Below are positions 19,320 through 64,000 of a DNA stretch of 64,000 bases, piece by piece. Made by a program: the position numbers and the translations under genes. Below the pieces are notes generated by a model. It saw only the letters and a list, made by a program, of their open reading frames with translations, did not search any database and was not told the origin of the DNA. The stretch's first letter is position 1. Every line of letters begins with the position of its first letter. Source of the DNA: a virus; IMG/VR virus record IMGVR_UViG_3300044615_000294, positions 1 to 64,000 of that record; one strand, given 5' to 3'.

Positions 19320-19765
19320 ATAACAAATATAACACAAATAACAAAGGCCCGGGCTTTCAACTCCAGACCTTTGTGCTATTTATTAACCCTTAAAAATAAC
19401 ATGACAAATATAAAATTAAATTTTTAAATTCCAAACGGGGGTAAAATTATTTTATTGAAGAGGATCTGGAGGGTGATGCTACAGACACCCCCGGGGGCCG
19501 CGCCAAACTGGGTACACCCCCCATAAATCTGAGGCAGCAATGTCATATTCTAGGTGCAAAAACAAAAAATATTCTACCAGGAAAAATATGTTAACCCATA
19601 CATGCTAGGTTACATGCTATGTAGTATAGTATATATAGTATATGTATATCTAATATGTGTTGTGTCAAGATCTATGCTTGCCGCTGTGCTACATCAATCT
19701 ATCTATGTATGTATATGTAATACAGTAACTGTGTCATACTATTCATAACCATTAAAACATTTATC

Positions 19766-19996
19766 ATGAAGATTTACTTTGCACTTATCACAGATTACTT
19801 AGGAAAACCTGTTCAACAATTAGCATACACTGCTACTGCTAAACACTCTGCATTCTTAGCACAAGAATACATTGACCATGTTCCACCTGCTTGCGGATTT
19901 ACAATATGCAAGAAATATGTAGATGCAAAACAAATAGCTAAGCTCCTTAACCAAGGGGCTTATGCCATACTCATAGTAACTGTGTTATACTATTAA
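19766..19996 (+). CDS. Early hypothetical protein
   Basis: ATG 25 nt after motif copy 1. Confidence 0.55.
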   Translation: MKIYFALITDYLGKPVQQLAYTATAKHSAFLAQEYIDHVPPACGFTICKKYVDAKQIAKLLNQGAYAILIVTVLYY

Positions 19997-20017
19997 TAAA
20001 CTTTAAAACTAAATACC

Positions 20018-20275
20018 ATGGACAAAGAAACTTTATACAAAGTAGTTGCTATGCTTGATGCAAGATACCAAGAGGCAGAAACATTTTTAGAAGATAATGA
20101 TTTAAATGATTTAGACTTTAATTATGTGCAAGGTTCCAAATTTGCACTTGCCGAATTCAAAGACCATTTACAAAAGGTTATTTATGCTGATGTATATGAC
20201 TCTGAACCACCAACTGAGTTTTGGGAACCAAGAAGACCAAGTGCTGATGAGTTAGAAGATGAGCTGCCTTTTTAA
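20018..20275 (+). CDS. Early acidic protein ending in DELPF (paralogue of next gene)
   Basis: After motif copy 2; followed by a GAGCTGCCTT/AAGGTGGCTC hairpin. Confidence 0.7.
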   Translation: MDKETLYKVVAMLDARYQEAETFLEDNDLNDLDFNYVQGSKFALAEFKDHLQKVIYADVYDSEPPTEFWEPRRPSADELEDELPF

Positions 20276-20337
20276 GGTGGCTCATTACAAATATAATAAC
20301 TATGTTATACTACTAATAAAATTTAAAACTAAATACT

Positions 20338-20535
20338 ATGGACACAAAAACTTTAATTGACGTAGTTGCAAGAATTGATGCAATGATAGAGTACTGTAAT
20401 TACACTGCCGTTAGTGAGGATTGGATAGAAGACTACGGTAATGGCTACAAAGACTCTTTAAAAGAGTTAAGTGAGCATCTACAAAAGGGTATAGATGCTG
20501 ATGTAGCTGCAATGGAAACAAACATGGGGATGTAA
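20338..20535 (+). CDS. Early acidic protein (paralogue of previous gene)
   Basis: MDxxTLxxVVAxxDA...HLQKxIxADV shared with 20018..20275. Confidence 0.7.
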   Translation: MDTKTLIDVVARIDAMIEYCNYTAVSEDWIEDYGNGYKDSLKELSEHLQKGIDADVAAMETNMGM

Positions 20536-20593
20536 CAATCCCCTTTTCATTATAACTGTGTCATACTACTAATAACCATTAAAATATAAAGTC

Positions 20594-20779
20594 ATGATTA
20601 AAACTATTCAGTATGTTTCTTTAAGTATCCTGTTAACAATCTTTCTAGAAGGTTTGTTAACTATGGGTTGGGCGTTTAACTTCAACAAGTATGGAGCATT
20701 TGCTTGGTTAGTTCAAGCAATTATACTTACTACAGTTGTTACAACAGCATTAAGGATTAGGCAAGAACAAGGGGATTAA
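20594..20779 (+). CDS. Early two-TM membrane protein
   Basis: After motif copy 4; two hydrophobic helices. Confidence 0.65.
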   Translation: MIKTIQYVSLSILLTIFLEGLLTMGWAFNFNKYGAFAWLVQAIILTTVVTTALRIRQEQGD

Positions 20780-20842
20780 TTTCCCCTTGTTTTAAATACA
20801 GTAACTGTGTTTTACTACTGTTAAACCATTAAATTATTTATT

Positions 20843-21004
20843 ATGTTAGTACAAAGTATTATTGCTCTTATTAGAGCTGAAATCATTAAGTCAGGACAAA
20901 AACCTGATAGCAAGTATCTTAACTCATTAACCAAGTTAAAGAGAAAAGACTTGTATGACCTACTCAATTCCTATAAACAGGAAAACAAGCTTATGGTTGA
21001 TTAA
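20843..21004 (+). CDS. Early small basic protein (53 aa)
   Basis: Manual translation MLVQSIIALIRAEIIKSGQKPDSKYL...; ATG 26 nt after motif copy 5; GGGG/CCCC hairpin follows. Confidence 0.65.
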   Translation: MLVQSIIALIRAEIIKSGQKPDSKYLNSLTKLKRKDLYDLLNSYKQENKLMVD

Positions 21005-21066
21005 GGGGGAAACCCCTTTTTTATTTAATACATAACTGTGCTTTACTAATCTTAAAATTTAAAACT

Positions 21067-21249
21067 ATGATTGCAAAACTTATCTTTACTTGGTACCTAC
21101 TAACAGGTACAGTTCAACCTGTAGACAATGTTGACGGAAGAACAATCTATGCTATGCCTGATTCTAATATAGAGTATGCTTATGAAGCAGAACTCATAGA
21201 GTATATAGAGACAGGAACATTTGAATACAATGAAGACTTGGAGGATTAA
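21067..21249 (+). CDS. Early acidic protein with hydrophobic N-terminus
   Basis: After motif copy 6. Confidence 0.65.
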   Translation: MIAKLIFTWYLLTGTVQPVDNVDGRTIYAMPDSNIEYAYEAELIEYIETGTFEYNEDLED

Positions 21250-21301
21250 TTCCTCTGAGTCTTAACTGTGTCTTACTATTATTAATTTAAAACTATTTAC
21301 T

Positions 21302-21583
21302 ATGAACAATTTAAAACCTTTCCATTCTCATGACTGTGAGAAATGCACACACTTAACATCTATATCTAAAGATGATTTAGAATATGATTTGTACTTCTGT
21401 ACAGGGGGCTTTGATGATGAGCCTTATTGCCATACTGTTATAGCAAGGTTTGGTGAATATGGAGCTTACATGTCAGGATTAGAGTTTTCAGATAAAGGTC
21501 CACTTAAAGAAGCTGCTATGCTTGCAATAGAAGCAGGACTCTTAGACCATGAAGTTTGGGTTGATCTAACTAGAAGAGATTGA
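21302..21583 (+). CDS. Early protein with HDCxxC metal-binding motif
   Basis: HSHDCEKC...DLYFC...TVIARFG...YMSG; after motif copy 7. Confidence 0.7.
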   Translation: MNNLKPFHSHDCEKCTHLTSISKDDLEYDLYFCTGGFDDEPYCHTVIARFGEYGAYMSGLEFSDKGPLKEAAMLAIEAGLLDHEVWVDLTRRD

Positions 21584-21639
21584 TAGGGGAGTAATCCCCT
21601 TTTAACCTTCTGTAAATAAAAACAATTAAACTATATACT

Positions 21640-21711
21640 ATGATAACAGCAATTCTTTGGGGATTTGTATTCTTGTTGGGATACATTAAGTACTGGTTGA
21701 TAAGGGGGTAA
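21640..21711 (+). CDS. 23-aa hydrophobic peptide
   Basis: MITAILWGFVFLLGYIKYWLIRG with an A-rich leader and a GGGG/CCCC hairpin over the stop. Confidence 0.4.
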   Translation: MITAILWGFVFLLGYIKYWLIRG

Positions 21712-21933
21712 TTCCCCTTTTCTTTTTTTGAAAAGTTAGCCAAGGAGTGTTAAGTATCCACACGGTGGAGCAAGTAGACTTTGGTACTGATAATCAGCCA
21801 CTTACAAAATGTGATGGTTTACCCAAAATACCCTCACACTAGTCCACCACACTTTTAGAGCTTCGCGTCTTTTTTATAACTGTGTTCTACTACTATTGTT
21901 GTTTTATTTATTAACCCATTAAAATTATTAAAA

Positions 21934-22221
21934 ATGGAAAAAATTGTAAGTGGTATTTTGGTTTCTTGTTCTGACAATGCTAAGGCTAATGTTAATGGTA
22001 CTCAGTACTACAACTGCACCGTTGAGTATAACGGGGAACAGTTCAGTGCTATTATGTACTCTACTGTTTATGACCGTGGCTTTACAATAGGCAGTACTGT
22101 TAACTTCAGTGTTAAAGTTACTGATGCTGCAACAGGTGACGTTATATTATCTGTGTTAGGTGCAGGTGCTAAACGTGCTACTGCTAATGCATTTGGCATT
22201 GAACTTCCTGCTATTGCATAG
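21934..22221 (+). CDS. Early protein, possible OB-fold
   Basis: After motif copy 8; beta-rich. Confidence 0.65.
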   Translation: MEKIVSGILVSCSDNAKANVNGTQYYNCTVEYNGEQFSAIMYSTVYDRGFTIGSTVNFSVKVTDAATGDVILSVLGAGAKRATANAFGIELPAIA

Positions 22222-22234
22222 TAGGTTCCGTATT

Positions 22235-22272
22235 AAACAGTGTGTGTCTACCAAGGCATGCACTGTTTTTTT
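22235..22272 (+). terminator. Intrinsic terminator
   Basis: ACAGTGTGTGTCT/AGGCATGCACTGT stem with G-U pairs followed by a T7 run. Confidence 0.7.
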
Positions 22273-22552
22273 AATACAGGAGCTACGCGTCTTTCTTTTA
22301 ACTGTGTTTTACTCCTCTTGTTGTTAGTTAACACCGGTCTACAACGCATTAACCCGGTCAACAGCTTTAAACACTTATGGATTAAAATAAATTCCGGAAT
22401 AAGTTAGTTTAAATAAGTGTATGTAACTAACTGATTATTAACCCCTCTTTATATCCTTACCTAATTATCTTACTGTATTTTACTATACTAGTATAGTATA
22501 GTTAAGGATTTTATATAGCTAACTTGTTACTTAACCCTTAATACATTTAACT

Positions 22553-22780
22553 ATGCATAGAGCTACTTACTTCCTATATGGAGTTCTATTCTCTCTTACA
22601 GTATATACTGTGTTTTACTCTATAGGAAAGACAGAGAGAAAGACTCCGGTCAAAGGTATAGACCGAGAATATTATTTAGAAGTTTCCCAAGATAGTATTT
22701 GGGTTGAATCTAGACAAGGTCAAATTTATAGTGGTAAATATACAGACTTAGACAGTCTTATTACCATTGATAACTTATAA
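22553..22780 (+). CDS. Hypothetical protein with N-terminal TM
   Basis: ORF track. Confidence 0.55.
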   Translation: MHRATYFLYGVLFSLTVYTVFYSIGKTERKTPVKGIDREYYLEVSQDSIWVESRQGQIYSGKYTDLDSLITIDNL

Positions 22781-22784
22781 TTAA

Positions 22785-23025
22785 TTGCAATATAGTTTCT
22801 AACAGCCAGTAATGGTCATCCGAAGGTAGAGCTATAAGTTGAGAAGGATATACTTATCTAGGTATTGCAACCTTGTGAGAGTACAGATGGTGTAGAGATT
22901 GTAGTATAATGGACGCATTATATGAGGCTCTATATTCTATACAGGGGTCAGTATAGTCTTAAATTTTGTAACCTGAAGAGGGTTTTATAATACTAATCCT
23001 AGCAATGAGATACCCCATTGTTAGG
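22785..23025 (+). ncRNA. Candidate structured ncRNA upstream of the ribozyme
   Basis: ORF-free; at least five stems, G-U pairs, a GTAA tetraloop and two complementary loop pairs (ATCC/GGAT; GGGT/ACCC). Confidence 0.45.
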
Positions 23026-23141
23026 TATTAATGCACCATTCCTGATTCCCAAGGTCAGGCAGTTGTAATAGACCAATATCGGGAATAGAAAGGCTTCTCA
23101 ACAGCACACTCTAATCTATTACAACTGAGTGCAGAGGGATA
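23026..23141 (+). ncRNA. Twister self-cleaving ribozyme (type P1, extended P5)
   Basis: P1 TAT/ATA; L1 UAA; P2 TGCA/TGCA; T2 CC/GG; P4 CCTGA/TCAGG around TCCCAAGG; 12-bp P5 CAGTTGTAATAG/CTATTACAACTG; GAGGG 3' strand. Confidence 0.72.
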
Positions 23142-23184
23142 ATCAACTTATAGAAACTTTATTTATCAACTTAAAATTACACTT

Positions 23185-23529
23185 ATGAACAAAACAGTCC
23201 CTTTTGGTTACCATTCATTTGGTAGTCACACTCTGATTAAACTTAACATGAATCTTACATTTGAAGATGCTGTCGAACTTAGAAAACTATATGATTTCAA
23301 TGTCATGTACTGTAATAGTAAAAAGAAACCACATCTCTATAGAATAGAAGGTGTTATTTCATGGAATAACAGTGATGGAGAAAAATATATTAGTTGGTTT
23401 GAAAAACTAAAAGTTTGCCGAATTAATGCTAAGATGCACAAACTTGCATGTAAGAAACAAGCACTGTTAGATAGTGCATTAGGTATGGAAAATTATATCC
23501 AACCTGTTGATTTAGATTTACCCTTTTAA
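23185..23529 (+). CDS. Hypothetical protein ending in DLDLPF
   Basis: ORF track. Confidence 0.6.
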   Translation: MNKTVPFGYHSFGSHTLIKLNMNLTFEDAVELRKLYDFNVMYCNSKKKPHLYRIEGVISWNNSDGEKYISWFEKLKVCRINAKMHKLACKKQALLDSALGMENYIQPVDLDLPF

Positions 23530-23540
23530 AATTTATGATT

Positions 23541-23678
23541 ATGAAAACAATTGGAATTGTATTATTATGGTTTGTATTTATTGGCATACTAGCATCTTTT
23601 GTTAGTTGTGCCAGCGGTCACCACTGTGACGCTTATGGTCAGACAAAGCAAGTAGAAACTAAAACTGTAAGCAAATGA
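23541..23678 (+). CDS. Small putative lipoprotein (45 aa)
   Basis: MKTIGIVLLWFVFIGILASFVSCASGHHCDAYGQ...; lipobox FVS-C; stop overlaps the next ATG. Confidence 0.6.
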   Translation: MKTIGIVLLWFVFIGILASFVSCASGHHCDAYGQTKQVETKTVSK

Positions 23679-23929
23679 TTTACAGTAAATTAAGAAAATT
23701 AGAACAGCAAAAGAGGGATATACAGTCCCTCATTATTGCTGCATACCAGTCAAGTGCAGATCCTGATGTTGTTATGATTAGAGTATCTGATTTACAGACA
23801 GACTTAGAATCTGTTAATGACGAGATACAGATGGAAGAAACATTTGTAAGACTCAAATGGGGTCTTGCATTCTTTGTTGTTGCATCATTGATATTAATTA
23901 TTGTTACACTATTTAAAACTTTATTATGA
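23675..23929 (+). CDS. Coiled-coil protein with C-terminal TM
   Basis: ORF track. Confidence 0.6.
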   Translation: MIYSKLRKLEQQKRDIQSLIIAAYQSSADPDVVMIRVSDLQTDLESVNDEIQMEETFVRLKWGLAFFVVASLILIIVTLFKTLL

Positions 23930-24280: not shown

Positions 24281-24354
24281 GGTCCTGTAGCTCAGCTGGA
24301 TAGAGCAACTGCCTTCTAAGCAGTAGGTCTTTGGTTCGAATCCAAACAGGATCA
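24281..24354 (+). tRNA. tRNA-Arg (anticodon TCT)
   Basis: GGTCCTG/CAGGATC acceptor stem, TAGCTCAGCTGGATAGAGC D-arm, ACTGC-CTTCTAA-GCAGT anticodon arm, GGTTCGAATCC T-arm; CCA not encoded. Confidence 0.95.
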
Positions 24355-24378
24355 CTGTTATTAACCAAAATCACTTAT

Positions 24379-52430: not shown

Positions 52431-52447
52431 TCTTCCCCTTATTTTTT
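52415..52447. terminator. Bidirectional terminator at the convergent junction
   Basis: AAGGGGAAGA-GATAA-TCTTCCCCTT with A/T runs on both sides. Confidence 0.7.
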
Positions 52448-55400
52448 TACTTTAAATTTTCAAACATTTGGTATTTCTTAATAGCCCAAATAGCACCTTC
52501 ATCAAAGTTTTCTTGACCTTCAATACCAAGATCTATTACATTTTTACCTTTAAGACCATACATTGAACCAAGGTGATTCCAAAGCTTGTATTGTCCTTGT
52601 CTTTGCCACTTATATGGTCCAACATCTTGGCTATATCTTGCTTCTCCCTCATTACCCGCTCCAATATTATAAAGATCTTGACCTATCTTAGTGTACAATA
52701 CAACTGTATTATCTAATGCTATTGTCGTTGTTTTAAAATATTTTGTTCCTTGCTCTGGAAGATAGACAGGTATAAAAGATTCATTTTCCATTTTAGTCAT
52801 TATCAAAAGATAAAGTAAATGATTCTCAAGTTGACCTTGTGTTGTAGTTGCTCTTGCTTTTAATTTTTTCCACTTATCTTCATCATCTGGATCATAACCA
52901 AAATACCATGAACCAATAATCATTGCTAATAAGAAGTATCCAACATTTTCAATAATTACTTTTTTGGCTGCAGCTTTTTCATCTTCAGTCATTATTGCGG
53001 TATCTTTACCTACTGATCTAATGAGTCTTAATGCATTTTGCATAGTATTCATGTAATAACCTTTATCTAAAGTATTAGTGTCCCAGTTATATACATACCC
53101 ACCTAGATTACCTTTATCAGTATCTATTTGGTATTTATCAAGAAACATTCCTGTAGCAAATCTTTTATAAAAAGTAAATGCGCGGTACCCTAAATATTTT
53201 TCAGCTTGTGGTGTATCAAATACATCCATTAAACCTGTTGTCTTTTTCTGTGCAGATTGTAATAAGAATTTCATATTTAAAAATCCTTCCATGTTACCCA
53301 CAGTGATTTTATCTCCAGGCTCAAGTTTTGATATATCAGTTATACCACTTCTTTTTTTAACTTGTTCAGCTGTTATATTATATCTTTTAGCAATGCTTTC
53401 AAAAGTATCTCCTCTCTTATACTCATGCTCTACTTTTTTATAGTCATACATTGGATCAATACCATCTTTTAATTTTAAAATTCCTCTATCATCTGTTTCC
53501 CATGCATCAGCATAAGCTATATCTTCAGAAGAACCAGCTTGTGGAATGTATTTGTTATACATCATGCCCCAGAACATCTCTAGAGCAGCCTCAAGTTCCA
53601 TTGTTCTTCTAAAGTCATAAGCATATGTTAAATCTGCTAAGTCTTTTAGTTTTGATCTTGATGATGATTTACCAAAGTTTTTACCAAACATTGCTGTAGG
53701 ATCCATCCTTTCTACTAACTGTATGTCAGCTGATTTAATTCCTTGCTCATATACATCTTTAAATACCCAGAACATTGCAGATTGTTTGGCTTTTGCATAC
53801 CCCTTTGCTAATGACATTGGTGTAACATTTTTACCACCTGCTGCATATATAGCATTTTGATAAAGCATCCCCCAACGGTTTTTAATAGCTGACTGTGGAT
53901 CAAATGCAATAAATGCTCTTGAAGATCTTCTAAATAATCCTTGAATAATTTTAGTTAACCATGCATTTTCTTCATCAAATGTTCCAGTAGTTTTACCATA
54001 AAAGATTTTTTTAACTTGATGTTTTACTGCACCTAATCTTCTATTATCATCTTTAGATAAGAACTTCCTTTTACGTGTTCTTTGAAATTCTTGTTGATCA
54101 ATATTTGTTAAATCTTTAATACCATTTTGAGAAAGGACACTTTCCAAAGCTTTAGCAATTGGTTCATTTTCCAATAATACTTTTTGTTCTTCTAAGGATA
54201 AAAGATAATCATACATCCCCCGTAATACATCTTTAGAAACACGTTTTTGATCTAAATTGTATAAGCCTCTAATTCTAACTTTATTAACTGGTCTTCCATC
54301 TAAGTCTGTTGGAACCAAATTAAAATTAACATCATGATTAAATCCAAACTCTGCATCATCTACATCTTTACCAAACCATGTTTTCCATAAACCTTTAAAT
54401 CCACCAACTCTATCTATCAAATTTTCTTTAGCTTCTCCAGACGCAACATATTCTAAATTACCTCTTTTTCTAAACCTTGGCATTTCTAAGTACAATCTAC
54501 TTGAAACAGGTTTATTTTTTTGAATTTGAATCATAGATTCAGTTATAGCATTTAATAAATCAAATTCTGGCCCACCAGCATTTTTCATTTCTTCATATTC
54601 TTCATTTTGATATTTTTTATCAAATGCTGAATTTGGATCACCAATATTATACTCTCTAGGTAAATAGTTACCTTTATTATCTACAATAGTACCTACATAA
54701 TTATCCCAACTTTCACCTCTTGGTATTGTTAAAAATTCACTTTTTATTCTACTCTTAGTATATTTACCAGCTGGTCTTCCTATAATTTTTCTTTCTGTCT
54801 TAGTTAAAGGGTCAATGATTTCTGTTACAACATAATGATCAGGATTGTTTGGAATCTTCATTGTCCAGGCTGCAATTCTAAAGTTTTTAATTACATTCCT
54901 ATTTAAGTCCACATCATATACTTCCTTTTGATAATGATTTCTACCATACCATTTTGCAAACTCTGGATTTTCTAAAGCTTTAACTAAATTTTCTCCATTT
55001 ATCCATTTATCTGCATTATCTGTAGTCATTTCAGGAAGTTCCATATCTCTTATAGCATAATTAAATGCTTCAAGATAATAGTCTGTTGGAATTTTACTTT
55101 CAAGTTCTCTTAATTCTGCAAATCTTGATTTAAGTGCTGCTAATTCTGCAGGAGTTAAACCCATCTCATTTTTAATAGAAAGGATTTCTGCATAATCTTT
55201 TCTTTCTTCTGGAGTTAATTGAGTTCCAGCAGCGGCTTTTGCAATATAAGAGTCATATCTAGATGTTTGATCTTTTGTTAATCCAGTTTTTCTATCAAAC
55301 TGTTCTTCCAATCTTACTATTTCATCTTCTATTTTCTTTAAAAGATTAATTTGTTCAGGAGAAAGGTTTAATCCATTAGGTTGCCCGTTAGCATCTGATG

Positions 55401-58400
55401 TAGAGGTAGATAAATTAAATCTAGTTTTATAAAGTTCAGCTAAGTCTAATGCTATTTGAGATTTTTTATCAGCAACCTTTGCAGTTATTTTTCTGATCTC
55501 CTCTAATATTCTTTTTCTTTCAGCATAAAACTTAGATGTATACGCTGTTTTAAAATTAGACCTTAAGAATTTATCAATCTGCTTTTGATATTCATTTTTA
55601 GTTTCCCCTTCTTTAGGTTCAGCTTCCGGGTCTATACCTTTGGCTATCAATCTATTATGAAAATTATCTAGATCTTTTTGTACTCTATCTGAATCTATAT
55701 CATAGTCATACATGTTTCTTGACAGCTCTCTGTGTTTTTTTCTTAGCAAAACTCTTTGAAGTTCTTCACCTTCTTTTGGCTCACCTTGTAAATTGTATAT
55801 ATCAAATAATCTGTTGTACTCTAATCTTGCTTGTTCTTCTGAATCATTAAAGTCATATAAGTCTTCTAAGTCTAAAAAGTTTACATTCTTTAATGTATTC
55901 ATTTTAGATAAAGCATTTTGCCTTTCTACATATGAATCAAAAGCAATTTTAGGAGAAATTGTTATTTCTTGTCCTGTAAAAGGATCTGTTACTACAGCTC
56001 CTGTATTCCAAATTTTTTGAATGTCATAGAATTCTTTTGTATATCTTCTATGCATATACTTTTCTTCAAAGTCTTGAATAGCTTGATAAGCATCTTTCAT
56101 AGCCTGCTTATCATTTTTAGCCCTAGCTTCTTGAAAATTATTTTGAAGTTTAGCTAAATCATATCTATAGTTTTTAAACTTATTCTTAAATGTCCAAACT
56201 TCTTTTTCTTGAAAGTCTCCATTGTTATCCACATAACCAACTTTATCTAAAAACAATAGCATGTCACCAAGCTGATTTGTTTTATATGGTTGATAACCAA
56301 CAGCATTTAATAATGGTAGTAACTTATATGTTATTTCATCTGCCTGATCTTGTGCAGCTTGTTGAGCTTCAAATATTTTAGTCTTTACAAATCTTGTAAA
56401 TGAACCAGCAATTGGATCATCCATGTTTGCATACGGAGTAATAAATGCTGTGTAGAATGATAAATCTCCTCTCTCCCCTCTTAAGTATTCTTCAATTTGT
56501 TTTTTACCTAAGCGTTTAAACATATACTCATTTACTGCTTTAACAACTAGCTTAGCTCTTCTAGGAGTTATATCAGTTAACTTAAGGTCTTTCAATGTAT
56601 AGGTCTCTCTATCTTCAGTGTTAATTACATTTTCTATAAAGTTATTTACATCTTCTTCAGAGTAACCTTCTGCTTTTAAAATTATACCAACTCTTTCTTT
56701 TAAACTTTTTTCAATAGAATCTTGCATTAACTCTGTTTCATCTGCAAAGAAGTCAGAGATAAACTTAAATTCTATTTCCGCTATTTTTTTATTAGCATTT
56801 TCAACTGAGTTTTGTATTGAGTTAAGAGTCTTATAAAACAAAGTTTCCTTATCAAGAGGTAAATCTTTTAACTTATCAAGCAGAACCTGTTGATTTTGTA
56901 AAGATGTTTTATAATAAATAACTCTTGAAATATTTTCATTAGTTTGACTTTCTACTTTTGTCAAGTCATCAAGAATTTTTTCAATGCTTTCAACAAATGT
57001 TTCTATTTCATTTAATGAGTTTGTAAGTGCTAATGCTCTAAGTCTTGTTTCAGATTCTATATCTTCTACAGCTCTAATAACATTTTCTGGATCTATATCT
57101 TCTGCTTTTACATTTACTGTTTGATACTTAGAAAGTTCTTCACGGATGTAATTTAAAATTTTTGTTCCGCCACTTTTAACTAATAGGTCCTTTACTTTAA
57201 ATGGAACTTGCTTCAAACTATTAAGCTGACGCATGTTATTATCATAGATTCTATTAATCTCTTCTTGTAATCTTTCAACTGGAATACCTTTAAGCTCATT
57301 AATCCTTCTAGCTACTTCACTTTCTAGTTTTTTAAACTCAGGATTATTAACATTAAAAATTTCAAAAGATTCAATCTGAAACTCCTCATTAGCAAGCATA
57401 TTGGCTAATTGATCTAAAGTAGTACTTTGACTTAGTTTATTTAAATTAATCTTTGCTGCCACCTTTGGACTAAATGCTTTTCTAATAACTTTCTTAATAG
57501 CAAACATTAGTTTATCTAAGAACTTTTTAAAAGCTGAAGATGGAGCTGTCCCCTTTCTTTCAATAGAGGTAACTAATGCTTCCCTCATAAATGCTTTTGA
57601 TCCCTTTTGAAGTTTGGGATATAGTCTTTCTATATATGCTATAACATCCATACCTTCTGGAGTCATACTTAATTCAGCATATAGATTATTAAATAGCTCA
57701 GGGTTTTCTTGTTCAATACCTTTTATTAAAGGATGTGCAAATTCGTGTAGTACATTATCTACTGATAGATTACCTTCTACAAAATATACTTTATTGCCAA
57801 AGAAGAATGCTGGTTCTCCATCATATTCTGTTGCAGTATTTTTTAATAATATTTCTGCAGCTTCAGGAGTTACTAACTCCCATTCTACATTCATGGCATC
57901 TGATAATTTATCAGCAAGCGTAGTAGCAATTTCTATTGCTCTTTCACTTTCAGCATTATATGTATCTGCAGAAGCTTCTTCAGCTGTCATTCTTGTTACA
58001 ATAGCAGCTTGTCTTCTAAACTCTGCTTCTGTAATGTTTGGATCCACACCTAATGTTTCTTCAGAGTTTCTGCCAAATAAATAATCATCTGTATAATCTA
58101 CACCTGCTCTTTTAGCATCTTCCTCTTGTATCTTTCTAGCCTCCTCTTCATATAATTCTTGTTCAGGAGTTTTCTCTTTAAACTCTGGTTTTATATAAGC
58201 CCCTGTCTTAATTATATTTTCTAAATCTGACACAGGTTTATTTGATTGAGTAGCATCTACAATTCTAGACTGCGCTCTTTCTATTTTACCTTCAATGTCT
58301 AATTTACCTTTAACCTTTCTAAGACCCCAAGTATTTAAATCTGCTTGACCAATTTGTTCTAGATTGTATAACATGTATACTGTCGAAATATTATTGGCTT

Positions 58401-58674
58401 TGTTATAGTTATTTTTTGTAGAGACAGCTTTCATCAAACTAATCTTTTGACTGTAGCTTATCTCTTTAGGGAAACTTTTACCAATTTCTTCTTTAACTTT
58501 AGAAATTGGAACTAAACCTAATGCTTCTTTAACATTTTTATTTTTAATGAAATCATTATAGCTAGGTGTTTCACTATTAAAAAATTCCTGAATAAGATTA
58601 GAGACTTTTGTTTCTCCAAAATCTTTTACCATTTTTTGTACATCAGGATCACCAAAGTTTAAACAGAATGACAT
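52447..58674 (-). CDS. Giant virion (ejected cargo) protein with zincin motif and LysM domain
   Basis: 2075 aa; VLHEFAHP at about 57733-57747; LysM HEYKRGDTFESIAKRYNIT...LEPGDKITV at about 53300-53430. Confidence 0.75.
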   Translation of the reverse strand: MSFCLNFGDPDVQKMVKDFGETKVSNLIQEFFNSETPSYNDFIKNKNVKEALGLVPISKVKEEIGKSFPKEISYSQKISLMKAVSTKNNYNKANNISTVYMLYNLEQIGQADLNTWGLRKVKGKLDIEGKIERAQSRIVDATQSNKPVSDLENIIKTGAYIKPEFKEKTPEQELYEEEARKIQEEDAKRAGVDYTDDYLFGRNSEETLGVDPNITEAEFRRQAAIVTRMTAEEASADTYNAESERAIEIATTLADKLSDAMNVEWELVTPEAAEILLKNTATEYDGEPAFFFGNKVYFVEGNLSVDNVLHEFAHPLIKGIEQENPELFNNLYAELSMTPEGMDVIAYIERLYPKLQKGSKAFMREALVTSIERKGTAPSSAFKKFLDKLMFAIKKVIRKAFSPKVAAKINLNKLSQSTTLDQLANMLANEEFQIESFEIFNVNNPEFKKLESEVARRINELKGIPVERLQEEINRIYDNNMRQLNSLKQVPFKVKDLLVKSGGTKILNYIREELSKYQTVNVKAEDIDPENVIRAVEDIESETRLRALALTNSLNEIETFVESIEKILDDLTKVESQTNENISRVIYYKTSLQNQQVLLDKLKDLPLDKETLFYKTLNSIQNSVENANKKIAEIEFKFISDFFADETELMQDSIEKSLKERVGIILKAEGYSEEDVNNFIENVINTEDRETYTLKDLKLTDITPRRAKLVVKAVNEYMFKRLGKKQIEEYLRGERGDLSFYTAFITPYANMDDPIAGSFTRFVKTKIFEAQQAAQDQADEITYKLLPLLNAVGYQPYKTNQLGDMLLFLDKVGYVDNNGDFQEKEVWTFKNKFKNYRYDLAKLQNNFQEARAKNDKQAMKDAYQAIQDFEEKYMHRRYTKEFYDIQKIWNTGAVVTDPFTGQEITISPKIAFDSYVERQNALSKMNTLKNVNFLDLEDLYDFNDSEEQARLEYNRLFDIYNLQGEPKEGEELQRVLLRKKHRELSRNMYDYDIDSDRVQKDLDNFHNRLIAKGIDPEAEPKEGETKNEYQKQIDKFLRSNFKTAYTSKFYAERKRILEEIRKITAKVADKKSQIALDLAELYKTRFNLSTSTSDANGQPNGLNLSPEQINLLKKIEDEIVRLEEQFDRKTGLTKDQTSRYDSYIAKAAAGTQLTPEERKDYAEILSIKNEMGLTPAELAALKSRFAELRELESKIPTDYYLEAFNYAIRDMELPEMTTDNADKWINGENLVKALENPEFAKWYGRNHYQKEVYDVDLNRNVIKNFRIAAWTMKIPNNPDHYVVTEIIDPLTKTERKIIGRPAGKYTKSRIKSEFLTIPRGESWDNYVGTIVDNKGNYLPREYNIGDPNSAFDKKYQNEEYEEMKNAGGPEFDLLNAITESMIQIQKNKPVSSRLYLEMPRFRKRGNLEYVASGEAKENLIDRVGGFKGLWKTWFGKDVDDAEFGFNHDVNFNLVPTDLDGRPVNKVRIRGLYNLDQKRVSKDVLRGMYDYLLSLEEQKVLLENEPIAKALESVLSQNGIKDLTNIDQQEFQRTRKRKFLSKDDNRRLGAVKHQVKKIFYGKTTGTFDEENAWLTKIIQGLFRRSSRAFIAFDPQSAIKNRWGMLYQNAIYAAGGKNVTPMSLAKGYAKAKQSAMFWVFKDVYEQGIKSADIQLVERMDPTAMFGKNFGKSSSRSKLKDLADLTYAYDFRRTMELEAALEMFWGMMYNKYIPQAGSSEDIAYADAWETDDRGILKLKDGIDPMYDYKKVEHEYKRGDTFESIAKRYNITAEQVKKRSGITDISKLEPGDKITVGNMEGFLNMKFLLQSAQKKTTGLMDVFDTPQAEKYLGYRAFTFYKRFATGMFLDKYQIDTDKGNLGGYVYNWDTNTLDKGYYMNTMQNALRLIRSVGKDTAIMTEDEKAAAKKVIIENVGYFLLAMIIGSWYFGYDPDDEDKWKKLKARATTTQGQLENHLLYLLIMTKMENESFIPVYLPEQGTKYFKTTTIALDNTVVLYTKIGQDLYNIGAGNEGEARYSQDVGPYKWQRQGQYKLWNHLGSMYGLKGKNVIDLGIEGQENFDEGAIWAIKKYQMFENLK

Positions 58675-58679
58675 AATCT

Positions 58680-61600
58680 TTATCTTTTACATTTCATATA
58701 ATAATCTAGAGCATCCATTATATCTAGATCTGGATTTTTAACTTCTTCATTTGCAAACCAATCTTTAAACTCTTTTGAATTTAATACAATGGTTTTATTT
58801 TGATTTTCCAAAGTTAAATTATTTTCTTCTTCTTCTTGACTAAATAAATCTAATTGTTCTCCTGGTCCAGGTTTTTGAGTACCTCTAAGCTCTTCTCTAA
58901 CTTCCATAAGTAATTTTGGAAACTCTTTACCCCATTTAGTTTTATCTTGAGTATGTGTAAGAGTAGCATTACCTGTAGCAAGTAATTTAGCAAGGGCATC
59001 TGGATTTTGTTCAAAAGAAAGTGTAAGTATATTTTTCATTACTCCTGATGAATCTCTATCCCAAGTTGCAGTTGATAAATCTTTAATTTTAGCTCCTAAA
59101 CTTTTTGCTTGAGCTCCAGTTGCAGTTTTTAATTTTTCAAGTATCTCTAAATTTTCTTTACTTGCAGGAGCACCTAATAAAACAGCATTTGTAAAAAATA
59201 TTTTCATAGCTTGGAAAGCACCTTCAGGAGTTCTGAATGTTTGACCATTAAGCGTTACAGCTCTGTCAGCAAAATTACTTAACTCAGCATTTTCTCCTGT
59301 ACCAGCATAAATATTGATTTTAATATCAGATCCTGGTAAATTAGTACTAGGTTGAGTAGTAATTAGTTTATCAAAATTCTCATTAAATACTATATTAGAA
59401 GGTATTGGTCCTGCATTAATAAACATATCTGCCATTTCTTGACCTGTATAACCATTAAGATTAGTTCCAGAGTAATCAGATACTAAAAATTCTTTAGTTG
59501 GATTTTCTTTAGCATACTCATACAACTTTTTAACACCCTCTATAATTTCTTGAGGAGTTTTACTTTTCTTTTTTCCAGGACTAGTTACAGTAGTTATACC
59601 CCATGCTTTTCCTGAATCAGACAATCTATTATCCATTTTTTCACCTTGCTTAACACCAGCAATTCTGTATGCAACTAATGCTGCTCCTCCTGTACCTTTA
59701 GAAGGATTTCCATTAATACCAAGTGGATTAGAACCAAATACAAATATTTGATTAGGCTGTAAACTTGTTACTTTTCCTGAATAAGTTTTTCTTTCAGTAG
59801 GTTGAGTAGTAGGTGCAGTAGCTTTTCTCCAAGTACCGATAGGTTGACCATCAATTTTTATCTCAGAATAATTATATCCTTTAGCTTCAAGATTTTGATA
59901 CAATCTTTTTTCACCAGTATTATAACTACTTGAATCTATGTAAGCTTTATTATCTGTAAGAATAGTAGCTCCAGCTTCTATGGCTTTAATTGCTTCTCTG
60001 ATAGTTTTATCTTGTTCTCTTTTAACAACGGTTGCATCACCTCTTAGTCCAGGAACAGATACAAAGATTACATCTGTACCACTATATTTACCAGTATTTG
60101 CTAAAGTACCAGCTTGTTCTCTATAGATCTGTGTAGTACTACGTTTACCATCTTTACCAACTATACCTTCTCCAAAACCAATAAACTGTGTAGCTATGCT
60201 CGCTTTTGTTACAGCTTTAGCATCTTTAACTCCCGCTTGAGGAATAACTGTAAATCTGTCTTTCTTTTCAAATGTTGGAGTAGTAGATACAAATGCAGCT
60301 GATACAAAGTTTTTAAAGATTCTATTTCTAGGATTCATACTTATATTAAATACTCTATCCATGTATCTTTGTTTATCTTCAAAGTTTTGGTTGTTAAAGT
60401 CTACTGCTGCATTATTCATAATTGCAACATAGTCTTCAAATGGTAAGATTTCATTAAAACCAAATCTACTATACCCTACTCCATTCTGATATACTGCAAC
60501 AAGTGGTAGTGCACGGAACATGTCACTGATGTACTTATTTTGTATTGGATCAGCTACTTTAGATACATTAGGATCAGCTAGATCTTTAATGTTTTGATAG
60601 TATTGTTCTGCCACATTTCCTTTACTTAATAATCTAGAATTATTTAAAGTAAGAATTTTCTGACCATCTTTAACTTCTGGAATAGATAGTTGTGATAATA
60701 AACTATATTTATCTTTTAACTCAGGATGTTGATTTATAATATCAAAAATATCTTCTGCAAATGAGTATCCTGTATTTTGGAAGAACACATCTTTTGTAAA
60801 GTATTTAGCTAAAATATCTGAAGGAATGTTTAACAAATCTTTTTCAGATTGTACATACCCCACCATATAATTTTGGAACACAGAATTAACCATGTTATTT
60901 TTTATATCAGATATGAATGTTTCAGTATCACCAAATCTTTTTACTATTTGAAAACTATTAGTCTTTATAAGACTTATAATGATATCACTTATGTCTTTTG
61001 AATTTCTTAATGGAAACACTGGCTGTACTAAATCCTGAACAATTTGATTGTCAAAAAATGTAGATAAGATAGATTCTTTTCTTAAAGCTTTTACTACTTT
61101 ACCTTCTACTCTTGAGTCATTTTCAATTTCATCAAGAAGTACATTTCTATTAATTACTTGCTGTAAAGTTTTAGATATTGCAGTATCCGGATTAGATAAT
61201 CTCATTAACTCTTGGTATCCTGAGAACTGTTTTTCTAATTCTAATACATGAAGTAATGTAGCAATTTGATGATCTCTAAATTTAGGGTCATTTGGATTAT
61301 CAAGAATTTTATTTAAATCTTCAATATTAAATTGCCCATCTTCATTTAAGATGTTACCTTTTTCTATAAGAGCGTCTAATGCTTTTTGTTCTTCTCTAAC
61401 TAACTTTGGTGCTTCTTTTGAATCAACAATAAATTTTGATAACACTCTAGCTGCTGCAACTTCTTTATCAGGAATTTTTATTTCTAGACCACTTTGACTA
61501 ATTTTAGTTCTAGGTATACCGCTGTTGTCAGTAATAAGATCTGAGTAAGAACTTTTTAAAAGTCTTTGTTCTTTTGCATACTCCCTTACTAATGGTTGTG

Positions 61601-64000
61601 ACAAAAACTTAATTGCATATTCTCTTGTAACTCCTGACTTAAATAACATAGCCATTAACCCAATCATTTCTTCATTACCTTGGATAAAGAATATCCATGC
61701 ATTTTTCTCAACATCCACAGAACCATTCATTAATTGTGAATATAGTTCTGATATTAAATCTCCATCTACTGTAGTAATATCTGAAAGTGATATTCTACCA
61801 TCTTTAGTTTTATTATGAGGTAATAATATTCTTGATTCTCTTCCTTTTTGTTTTTTATAGGTGTATGTTTTAGGCATTGCTGCACCTAAAGTATTTAGTA
61901 CCGGGTGTAAAGCATTGTAGATAGCTACAATACCCAATACCCTCTTACCAATCATATTTGCTTCATGCTTGTGTAAGTTGTATAATGGCTCTAATACTCT
62001 AGTGGGGCTAATAGCTTTTTCACCTTTTGTGTTTAGTCTTCTATCTTCACCATGATAGTTTTTAAATCTATCATAGTCTGTTACCTTGTCTTCTAATTTA
62101 TCTGCCAATTCATCTTTCAAAAGATATGTAGCATTTGGTCTAACAAGAGATGCATAGTTCTCTGGTAAACTAAGTATGTTAGATAGGCTAGTAATTAGTT
62201 TATTCTCTAAAGCTGCCTTTTGAGTACTCAGTAATCTAGCAGTCATTTGCTTTCCTTCTTCTGTATCTTTATTTTGATCAATAAGATTTTGAAGTCTCTC
62301 ATTAGACATTGCTGATTCTATAAACTTTCCAGATTTATCCAATGATGGCATAAATGTAGTAAGTTTATCAACGTCAAAGTCAGCTCCTGACTTAGCAACT
62401 ATTTCTGATGGTGGTATAATAATTGGACCAGCAGCCTCATCTAAGAACTCATATACTTCCATATATTCCATAGAGTTAAGGCCTTGCACAGGAATCCTAA
62501 CAGCAATCATGGTAATTGCTTTTCTATTAGCTCCATCATTTGCATTTAACCATTCATCATCTTTAATAGCCTGGTTTAGCCTTTCTCTTGTACCAATTTT
62601 TTCCCCTTTGTAATCTAAGTTTAAAAGATTAACAAAGTCTCCCTGAAGAGCAATAGCAACTTTCATTGCTGAAGTTCTATCTTTATCATAGTTATAGAAA
62701 GGTAAGTTATTAGTTCCCATGAACTTTCTTACTTGTTCTACATCAGCTTTATCAAATTGAATTTGATTATCCCAGATACCATTAGTCATTGCACTAGATA
62801 CCTGTACTAATGCTTCACCTTTGATTTTTTGTCTTACTAATCTTTTTTCAATTAATGAAACAATAATTTTTTCAATCTCATCTGCTCTTAAATGGAAAGA
62901 TAAATCTGTTTTCAAAGAGTTATCTGGATTCATATTGATAAACTCAATATGGTGTTCTGGGATATTCTTTCTACCCAACTCTCTTTGTACAAGCTCTAAG
63001 AAGTTTTTAAAATTTCCAATGTATTTACCATCTTCAAACTTATAACCAATCTCATTAAGTAGTTCCATTTTTAAGAACTCACCATATGCATCTACTGCAT
63101 CTTCATAATCTTTAACTAAAACTTGATTTTTAACTGTAAGTTCACCATTTCTATATAAGTTAGATAGGATAAGTTTTCTTAACTGAGTAGCAAATACTGT
63201 TTTGTTTTTATAAGATACAGGAACTTTAGTAACATCTTTAAGATACTCAAGGTATACTGTGTTTGGAGTAAACTTAATATCTGTCTTTAATGATTTTTGT
63301 TCATCATCATTATAAATTTTATCAGCTACTGCTTTTCCTTTTTCATTAACCTCAGATGTAACACTACCAACTTTAGAACCAGTCTGGAAAGTAACATACT
63401 GAATGTTTTCCTTAATCATTTGCTTATGTAAAGATTCTAAATCAGAATTCTTTATCATTGATGGAATAAGAGGAGCTAAGGCAAACTTATGCATTGCCAT
63501 TACTGGTAGTGATGTATTAGCCAAGTGTCCAAAATTTTGCACTTTATATACCGGGAATGCTTCAATAATATCAGAATACTTAACAGGTTCTTTTCTTATT
63601 ACCTTTACATATAATTGTTCTTGTAAATCACTCCACTGGTTAGATGCAATTTTAAGATTTCTATAAGCATCAAATGTAATCCATCCTTGACCATCTCCTT
63701 CCTCCATTTTTCCATAAGGCTTAAGATCCTGAGCCACACGCATTTCTACTTCCTCAGATAGTTTATCAGCTGGAACTTTTCCTTTAAGTCTCTCTGTATA
63801 ATCTTTTCTTAATTCTCTTTCAATTATAGGAGAATAAACAGATTCTCTCACAATATCTTGAATAATGGCAGAATTAAATTTACCTGTGTAAGCAAGAGTT
63901 TCTAATCCTTCTGCTTGTGCATAAGATAATTTACCATTCAATCCAGTTAAATAATTTCTTATTGACTGATCTGTTCTAATCTTTAATCCACCAGAAGTTC
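58680..64000 (-). CDS. Virion RNA polymerase (crAss-type) with C-terminal accessory domains including NADAR; 5' end beyond the window
   Basis: RIPVQG and GADFDVDKL catalytic motif at 62367-62381. The frame stays open upstream of the track's TTG start (TSGGLKIRTDQSIRNYLTG) to 64000. Confidence 0.88.
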   Translation of the reverse strand, partial: TSGGLKIRTDQSIRNYLTGLNGKLSYAQAEGLETLAYTGKFNSAIIQDIVRESVYSPIIERELRKDYTERLKGKVPADKLSEEVEMRVAQDLKPYGKMEEGDGQGWITFDAYRNLKIASNQWSDLQEQLYVKVIRKEPVKYSDIIEAFPVYKVQNFGHLANTSLPVMAMHKFALAPLIPSMIKNSDLESLHKQMIKENIQYVTFQTGSKVGSVTSEVNEKGKAVADKIYNDDEQKSLKTDIKFTPNTVYLEYLKDVTKVPVSYKNKTVFATQLRKLILSNLYRNGELTVKNQVLVKDYEDAVDAYGEFLKMELLNEIGYKFEDGKYIGNFKNFLELVQRELGRKNIPEHHIEFINMNPDNSLKTDLSFHLRADEIEKIIVSLIEKRLVRQKIKGEALVQVSSAMTNGIWDNQIQFDKADVEQVRKFMGTNNLPFYNYDKDRTSAMKVAIALQGDFVNLLNLDYKGEKIGTRERLNQAIKDDEWLNANDGANRKAITMIAVRIPVQGLNSMEYMEVYEFLDEAAGPIIIPPSEIVAKSGADFDVDKLTTFMPSLDKSGKFIESAMSNERLQNLIDQNKDTEEGKQMTARLLSTQKAALENKLITSLSNILSLPENYASLVRPNATYLLKDELADKLEDKVTDYDRFKNYHGEDRRLNTKGEKAISPTRVLEPLYNLHKHEANMIGKRVLGIVAIYNALHPVLNTLGAAMPKTYTYKKQKGRESRILLPHNKTKDGRISLSDITTVDGDLISELYSQLMNGSVDVEKNAWIFFIQGNEEMIGLMAMLFKSGVTREYAIKFLSQPLVREYAKEQRLLKSSYSDLITDNSGIPRTKISQSGLEIKIPDKEVAAARVLSKFIVDSKEAPKLVREEQKALDALIEKGNILNEDGQFNIEDLNKILDNPNDPKFRDHQIATLLHVLELEKQFSGYQELMRLSNPDTAISKTLQQVINRNVLLDEIENDSRVEGKVVKALRKESILSTFFDNQIVQDLVQPVFPLRNSKDISDIIISLIKTNSFQIVKRFGDTETFISDIKNNMVNSVFQNYMVGYVQSEKDLLNIPSDILAKYFTKDVFFQNTGYSFAEDIFDIINQHPELKDKYSLLSQLSIPEVKDGQKILTLNNSRLLSKGNVAEQYYQNIKDLADPNVSKVADPIQNKYISDMFRALPLVAVYQNGVGYSRFGFNEILPFEDYVAIMNNAAVDFNNQNFEDKQRYMDRVFNISMNPRNRIFKNFVSAAFVSTTPTFEKKDRFTVIPQAGVKDAKAVTKASIATQFIGFGEGIVGKDGKRSTTQIYREQAGTLANTGKYSGTDVIFVSVPGLRGDATVVKREQDKTIREAIKAIEAGATILTDNKAYIDSSSYNTGEKRLYQNLEAKGYNYSEIKIDGQPIGTWRKATAPTTQPTERKTYSGKVTSLQPNQIFVFGSNPLGINGNPSKGTGGAALVAYRIAGVKQGEKMDNRLSDSGKAWGITTVTSPGKKKSKTPQEIIEGVKKLYEYAKENPTKEFLVSDYSGTNLNGYTGQEMADMFINAGPIPSNIVFNENFDKLITTQPSTNLPGSDIKINIYAGTGENAELSNFADRAVTLNGQTFRTPEGAFQAMKIFFTNAVLLGAPASKENLEILEKLKTATGAQAKSLGAKIKDLSTATWDRDSSGVMKNILTLSFEQNPDALAKLLATGNATLTHTQDKTKWGKEFPKLLMEVREELRGTQKPGPGEQLDLFSQEEEENNLTLENQNKTIVLNSKEFKDWFANEEVKNPDLDIMDALDYYMKCKR

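Follow-up and report, generated by a model that had tools for sequence, protein, structure and literature searches.

The locus

The window, the whole stretch of DNA analysed here (64,000 nucleotides, positions 1 to 64,000 of IMG/VR virus record IMGVR_UViG_3300044615_000294), is part of a 91-kb phage record whose genes encode a portal protein, a large terminase, a DNA polymerase, a helicase, and two giant minus-strand open reading frames (ORFs), a set that suggests a crAss-like phage. The stretch is present in lake-water metagenomes, and small shares of it are found in six metatranscriptome runs. A 2.6-kb region of small ORFs carries nine exact, co-oriented copies of TAACTRTGYYHTACT (19726-22313, plus strand), which are confined to this region and resemble promoter or leader repeats specific to the phage. 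Approximately 700 nt past the last exact copy lies the element described here, which precedes an ORF of 114 amino acids, a tRNA-Arg(UCU) gene, and replication genes (Table 1). The 114-aa ORF matches no PHROG or Pfam family. A tRNA gene is also found roughly 1-3 kb downstream of the element in loci L088 and L098.

An ORF-free module occupies positions 22865-23025 (plus strand), upstream of the predicted cut site, and begins with TGCAACCUUGUGAGAGUA, a motif that is also located at varying distances 5' of the element in loci L078, L104, L114, L269, L296, L314, and L318. The module is 100% identical in L310 and L351, the flanks of which are about 80% identical or unrelated. Contigs from three metatranscriptome runs match 22865-22995 without mismatch, and the likeness begins at 22865. 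The module may be a separate structured RNA that is freed by the cut, or a promoter and leader. Directly 3' of the element is AACUUAUAGAAACUUUAU (23143-23160, plus strand), which is common to L078, L092, L104, and L310. This motif is positioned 27 nt before the ATG at 23185, a spacing of the class seen for the TAACTRTG repeats, and may serve the downstream gene as a leader or promoter element.

Table 1. Parts of the element, neighbouring features, and relatives of unusual form (window coordinates unless a locus is named)
Feature	Position	Strand	Details
P0-like hairpin	22998..23025	+	arms CCUAGCAAUG 22998-23007 and CAUUGUUAGG 23016-23025, loop AGAUACCC; from read-out and MFE fold
P1, 5' strand	23026..23028	+	UAU; partner AUA 23139-23141
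L1, 5' strand	23029..23031	+	U-A-A; candidate general acid A23030; predicted scissile bond U23029/A23030
P2, 5' strand	23032..23036	+	UGCAC; partner GUGCA 23129-23133
L2 invariant C	23037..23037	+	sole base remaining for T2; candidate partner G23053 or G23054
Linker, T2 to P4	23038..23040	+	AUU; site of P3 in canonical twisters
P4 hairpin	23041..23059	+	CCUGA 23041-45; loop U23046 and UCCCAAGG 23047-54; UCAGG 23055-59
T1 strand in P4 loop	23048-50	+	CCC; complementary to GGG 23136-38
P5	23060..23127	+	arms CAGUUGUAAUAG 23060-71 and CUAUUACAACUG 23116-27; 44-nt loop 23072-23115
P5/P2 junction	23128	+	unpaired A; A in 81/82 aligned sequences
P2, 3' strand	23129..23133	+	GUGCA
L1, 3' strand	23134..23138	+	GAGGG; candidate general base G23134 (role from PMC11662667); T1 GGG 23136-38
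P1, 3' strand	23139..23141	+	AUA; GUA in L351, P1 kept through a U.G pair
First downstream ORF	23185..23529	+	114 aa; starts 43 nt 3' of the element
tRNA-Arg	24281-24355	+	anticodon UCU; 71 bits
Giant ORF	52447-58674	-	2075 aa; LysM domain
Giant ORF	58680-63941	-	1753 aa, cut by the window end; NADAR domain near C-terminus, E 3.8e-11
L4-insert members	L310:6779-7073	+	also L142, L154, L215, L260, L263, L267, L274, L284, L297, L305, L323, L327, L331, L336, L340
Plain-hairpin relatives			L185, L262 (two copies), L268, L295, L307, L313, L339

A twister-like core

An initial annotation of this DNA read positions 23026-23141 as a twister-like ribozyme with a large P5 insert and a P1 of only 3 bp. 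Its sequence string agrees with the window letter by letter, and the proposed architecture is borne out: the UAA, GAGGG, and UCCCAAG segments match the cores of published twisters. The element is a copy of a large twister-type family that is located between genes of uncultured lake phages, and its resemblance to twisters is far beyond chance. The 20-mer core ACCATTCCTGATTCCCAAGG has one occurrence in the window, against 0.00 in shuffled versions of it.

Schistosoma (Sma) twisters are tabulated as the series P1, UAA, P2, GC, P3, P4, (G)UCCCAAGC, P4, GUAAA, P2, GAGGG, P1 (PMC8501958, Table 1). The unpaired letters and element order in the window correspond to this table through UAA, P2, L2, P4, the UCCCAAGC loop, P4, L2, P2, and GAGGG (PMC8501958). 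By its letters, the 5' side of L1 (U23029-A23030-A23031) conforms to the N-A-A of twisters, and its 3' side, GAGGG, directly follows P2, as it does in twisters. L1 is flanked by a P1 and a P2 that both covary. P4 is capped by UCCCAAG (23047-23053), a twister-type loop, and the loop letters are those of the published L4, GUCCCAAGC, save the last base. Published work on twisters assigns to these core letters the roles of general acid (A), general base (G), and pseudoknot strands (PMC11662667). The cut that had been predicted between U23029 and A23030 agrees, by homology, with the position in published twisters.

The P4-loop CCC is complementary to the GGG of GAGGG (T1), and these three pairs are invariant in the alignment described below, so covariation speaks neither for nor against them. 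A second pseudoknot of two pairs, in which GC in L2 faces GC in the loop, is not found in this element. Because T1 and the remaining T2 pair never vary, the putative double pseudoknot, the hallmark of the twister fold, is proposed from complementarity and from analogy to known twisters.

The peripheral helices have precedents. A hairpin of 10 bp lies immediately 5' of P1, at the position of P0, a known optional twister stem (PMC6154101, PMC11662667). Both P0 and P5 are optional, occurring in 21% and 1% of twisters, respectively (PMC6154101). Imperfections of P1 are harmless in known twisters, in which this helix is dispensable, and the rare tested twisters with a P5 stem-loop all cleaved above 0.8 (PMC11662667).

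The fold of 22994-23145, with the upstream hairpin included, has a z score of -4.2 relative to shuffles. In the minimum-free-energy fold, P0 is lengthened by UAAU (22994-97) pairing with AUUA (23027-30), which masks U23029/A23030. This predicted extension could compete with the active fold. Hairpins at the P0 position elsewhere differ in sequence, for example CCUAUUA/UAAUAGG in L289, CCUAAUA/UAUUAGG in L297, and UAAGCA/UGCUUA in L284, L168, and L328.

A large family in viral contigs

Searches of viral contigs began with an exact 16-mer of the loop region and continued with degenerate patterns in which P4, P5, or the 5' half was left free. These pattern scans place the same core and covarying helices in more than 200 contigs. 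After an unrelated coding family and chance matches had been taken out, the matches listed were parsed into 183 unique copies that lack a loop insert and a further 28 unique copies that contain one. Also among the matches listed, the fetched loci hold 231 instances, and 19 loci contain two or three copies.

The structure was evaluated by using an 82-sequence MAFFT alignment (A1). Within its helices, 93.7% of cells are paired, compared with 80.6% in shuffles, and the covariation score is 0.407, compared with 0.161 (0/500 shuffles reach either value). Sliding the 3' partners by one to three columns reduces pairing to 31-49%. All five P4 pairs change on both sides and 99.5% of their cells are paired in A1. 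Among the matches listed, P4 exists in more than 20 fully complementary versions, including CUCAC/GUGAG (57 copies), CCUGA/UCAGG (30), UCUAC/GUAGA (22), and CUAUC/GAUAG (16). The large P5 insert of the initial annotation is likewise real, with arms at 23060-71 and 23116-27. Its eight basal pairs all covary in A1 (96.7% paired), and its base alternates among CAGUUG/CAACUG, CAAUUG/CAAUUG, CAGAUG/CAUCUG, CUGUUA/UAACAG, and more.

The three pairs assigned to P1, a weak helix, each show changes on both sides, with 68.7% of cells paired in A1. P2 is 99.8% paired, with two of five pairs covarying (third pair C:G 64, U:A 16; fifth pair C:G 68, U:A 11; A1), and alternates between UGCA/UGCA and UGUA/UACA across the family. 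The linker at 23038-40 is variable, reading AUU in 137, AUAA in 24, ACAA in 15, and other letters in 7 of the 183 copies among the matches listed. Because G.U pairs outnumber A.C combinations in the helices of A1 (60 versus 14), the plus strand is the RNA.

Many invariant columns of A1 were fixed by the search patterns. The core letters were also counted in samples that had left them free. UAA is found in 82/82 sequences of A1 and in 56-57 of 58 members of a 3'-anchored sample in which it was free. Together with the UCCCAAGG loop, which is invariant in A1 and was left free in that sample, the range is 56-58/58. GAGGG is present in 82/82 sequences of A1 and in about 107 of 110 members of a 5'-anchored sample in which it was free. 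The U beside L4 that had been called extra, U23046, is indeed there; it is not extra, being invariant among the 82 aligned sequences, and its position had been left free in the scan pattern.

A covariance model for the family (R1), derived from A1, gives the window copy a score of 103 bits (E about 2e-25). In the window and the 91-kb record, R1 reveals no second copy, so this phage carries a single one. GenBank phage records gave no blastn match to three queries, and thus the family is not known from any cultured phage. A literature search found no description of this phage branch.

P2, T2, and the Rfam models

The initial annotation assigned four pairs to P2 and read a compensatory CC/GG in place of the usual T2 pairs. 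Neither assignment holds. P2 has five pairs, because the first C of L2, C23036, covaries with the base that precedes the 3' UGCA, G23129. Among the matches listed, this position pair is C:G in 148 copies, U:A in 25, U.G in 4, and mismatched in 6 (183 copies). A scan for copies with a letter other than C at the first L2 position gave 31 real matches, all with U, and in 27 of these 31 the base before the 3' UGCA is A. The corresponding scan at the second L2 position returned only 17 chance matches that lack P4 and the 3' core.

Both C23037 and the loop GG are invariant in A1. Since this C is all that is left to pair with a loop G, T2 yields no covariation evidence. By analogy to twisters, C23037 and the loop G would form at most one T2 pair. 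A stack of five P2 pairs and one T2 pair thus appears to replace the canonical four and two.

The twister-P1 covariance model of Rfam, which had been expected to recognize the element, gave no match at any threshold tried. With Rfam 15 (4227 models; gathering score of RF03160, 67.2 bits), none of the models recognized the element when the window was run through cmscan at the gathering score, which gave only tRNAs and noise. At E<=10, none of them, twister-P1, -P3, -P5, and twister-sister included, recognized the element in 361 nt around the site or its relatives in five homologous short-insert loci; a search of five whole records with RF03160 also found none. A natural 56-nt member in which P5 is a short hairpin (L131:2893-2950) has no Rfam match at E<=10, so the miss is not merely due to the big insert. 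We judge it to be a limit of the Rfam models, because this insert-poor member is missed and the family-specific model scores 103 bits.

Inserts and unusual copies

The P5 insert is present in every copy and ranges from 11 to 254 nt among the matches listed. The 160 P5 interiors compared fall into 134 clusters, and 13 of the 20 multi-member clusters span different P4 backgrounds (among the matches listed). No relative of the window's P5 loop is found among the fetched loci, and one other near-identical copy occurs in viral contigs, in L351, alongside the same upstream module. A conserved P5 cargo was considered and is not supported, the interiors being mostly unique and the window loop being found in only one other contig.

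A subclass of 28 unique copies (among the matches listed) contains a branched, conserved insert between the 5' strand of P4 and UCCCAAGG. The insert consists of GUGGAUAUAAAGACUUCUUAG and CUAAGAUGUGAAACCAC, separated by variable letters, followed by a hairpin of CUGAUUAA and UUAAUCAG. A member of this subclass matched no Rfam family in cmscan. The insert might brace the structure or act as a control domain.

Copies are sometimes arranged back-to-back, 0-1 nt apart, as in L215 and L236 (915-1091 and 1091-1318), L231 (2543-2693 and 2694-2860), and L331 (2738-2882 and 2883-3132), and also at L026:9400-9545. If both neighbours cut, they would set free a complete ribozyme unit together with its insert, as an RNA bearing 5'-OH and 2',3'-cyclic phosphate ends. 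It is conceivable, if rather doubtful, that the P5 and L4 inserts are payloads or control modules on a self-processing twister carrier, a swappable RNA platform of lake crAss-like phages. Such payloads would include a ligand- or protein-responsive cleavage switch, or small RNAs freed by back-to-back ribozymes.

In several loci (Table 1), the 3' half of the element (the 3' strand of P4, P5, and GUGCAGAGGG) is joined to a 5' half that is merely complementary, such as CCUCUGCAC, with neither UAA nor the UCCCAAGG loop. These plain long hairpins cannot be twisters and may be decayed or re-purposed relatives.

Genomic context and hosts

Copies of the family lie between genes and share their orientation. 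Within 2 kb of the copies, 304,851 ORF bases are on the same strand and 41,130 on the opposite strand (7:1; fetched loci, among the matches listed), and a same-strand ORF of at least 80 aa overlaps only 8 of 231 copies (among the matches listed). The median distance to the start of the next downstream ORF is 99 nt (25th percentile, 45 nt; among the matches listed), and the distance in the window is 43 nt. Homologues of the 114-aa ORF follow the element in only three other loci, and the downstream proteins fall into 121 clusters (both among the matches listed), so that no single gene is served; a tie to a particular downstream gene is thereby ruled out.

Over 22700-23700, relatives' contigs from four metatranscriptome runs cover the core and both flanks and none stops at 23029/23030, such contigs being proof neither of RNA ends nor of transcription. 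The motif also occurs in seven contigs of metagenome-assembled genomes (MAGs), mostly of Bacteroidota, that are binned as Chitinophagaceae, Sediminibacterium, and Bacteroidia, as well as Chloroflexia and Phycisphaerales. Bacteroidota are probable hosts, a lead only, because these may be phage contigs that were binned by error.

Proposed self-cleavage and alternative explanations

We consider it likely, with a probability of roughly three in four, that the element self-cleaves between U23029 and A23030 in the manner of twisters, by analogy to which the position is predicted. The plus-strand transcript would adopt a variant of the type-P1 layout, with P0, P1, P2, P4, and a large P5 and without P3. 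The CCC of the P4 loop would pair with the GGG of GAGGG (T1) and a loop G with C23037 (the shortened T2), a fold that would place A23030 and G23134 at the U23029-A23030 bond. Cleavage of this bond by internal transesterification would leave the upstream RNA with a terminal P0 hairpin and a 2',3'-cyclic phosphate. The downstream RNA would start with a 5'-OH and the folded ribozyme, the next start codon lying 43 nt further on. The role might be to separate transcripts of the early cassette from the next gene block independently of host enzymes. The context makes early-transcript processing that gives the downstream mRNA a 5'-OH plausible. Given the intergenic, co-oriented placement of the family, the best-supported reading is that the RNA cuts itself and so parts the upstream from the downstream segment with no need of host RNases.

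An alternative is that the RNA derives from a twister and no longer cleaves, serving as a scaffold or a protein-binding handle that displays the variable inserts of P5 or, in relatives, of L4. The occurrence of the 3' half with 5' halves that lack UAA and the UCCCAAGG loop is in keeping with this idea, since pairing with merely complementary 5' halves indicates that the P5-bearing stem survives without the twister core. The absence of one canonical T2 pair and the recurrence of a few P5 interiors in different P4 backgrounds (the 13 of 20 clusters noted above, among the matches listed) point the same way. However, the nucleotides that are tied to catalysis or to the pseudoknots (both A residues of UAA, the first G of GAGGG, CCC/GGG, and the A residues of the loop) are invariant in more than 100 diverse copies, which is hard to explain without catalysis, and P5 interiors that are nearly all unique (134 clusters of 160, among the matches listed) give little sign of a conserved cargo. 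We regard a non-cleaving RNA as unlikely.

The element might instead be a dispersed DNA repeat, a recombination junction at which phages shuffle modules, with no function as RNA. Homology with relatives does break inside the element or exactly at its edge. L310 is 100% identical to the window over 22865-23041 and then diverges inside the ribozyme, with another P4, a loop insert, and another P5, and L351 shares the upstream module and the ribozyme, including the P5 loop, up to a point exactly after GAGGG. The ribozyme interiors differ at the same locus in close relatives, and the conserved cores thus serve as crossover points as well. A repeat that functions only as DNA would not, however, preserve Watson-Crick complementarity through more than 20 P4 sequences, favour G.U over A.C on one strand, or maintain a 7:1 co-orientation with genes. 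Because neither the compensatory changes nor the strand asymmetry can be explained by a role in DNA only, we regard crossover as a side effect and consider this explanation highly improbable. Finally, a chance likeness to the twister motif in AT-rich intergenic DNA, to which the lack of an Rfam match might point, is refuted by hundreds of homologues with covariation, by a core 20-mer expected 0.00 times in window shuffles, and by the R1 E-value of about 2e-25.

Comparison with known ribozymes

The twister class was reportedly described by Roth et al. in 2014. The window copy on its own is a modest find, one ordinary member of its family. As a whole, the family forms a distinct branch by sequence, and phage genomes hold hundreds of its natural variants. 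Because the current Rfam models miss this branch, surveys based on Rfam undercount phage ribozymes. The co-oriented sites are fixed, many of them following a hairpin directly and preceding a start codon by about 45 nt, and they allow a direct test of enzyme-free mRNA processing and end protection. Nature's exchange of a T2 pair for a P2 pair, like its insertion of domains into P5 and L4, provides ready-made structure-function experiments on the twister fold.

Compared with type-P1 twisters (RF03160; Sma-1-15 in PMC8501958; Osa-1-4 and env22 in PMC6154101), the window element has the same order of elements and the same CCC/GGG complementarity. It also shares the optional P0 and P5, and its short, imperfect P1 is of a kind that twisters tolerate (PMC11662667). 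In contrast to type-P1 twisters, its fifth P2 pair displaces one T2 pair, so that the GC of L2 becomes C or U followed by C, and its loop ends in GG rather than GC. P3, which is present in 78% of known twisters, is absent from the family, whereas P5, found in 1% of known twisters (PMC6154101), occurs in every family copy listed. A subclass with a conserved, branched insert in L4 further distinguishes the family from known twisters. Among the matches listed, contigs of uncultured phages and a few MAG contigs are the only places where the family has been seen so far.

Twister-sister ribozymes show some similarity to twisters in loops and helices and are phage-associated too. They are without the twister double pseudoknot and have other conserved nucleotides near the cut site (PMC6154101), where the window element has the twister letters. 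The twister-sister model did not match the window element at E<=10.

Bacterial and phage twister and hammerhead ribozymes near phage genes have been reported by the Weinberg group (summarized in PMC6765202 and PMC10085705), and they share with the present family a placement between co-oriented genes of phage-related DNA, sometimes with several copies adjacent. Those motifs are canonical, mostly from Firmicutes, and located near genes of Mu-like phages (PMC6765202, PMC10085705), whereas the present family is a sequence-distinct branch from lake phages of crAss-like gene content. The function of bacterial and phage twister ribozymes is an open question in the field (PMC6765202, PMC10085705). In sum, the element belongs to a known ribozyme class and represents a new branch of it, twister-like, outside the Rfam families as modelled, and one canonical T2 pair short.
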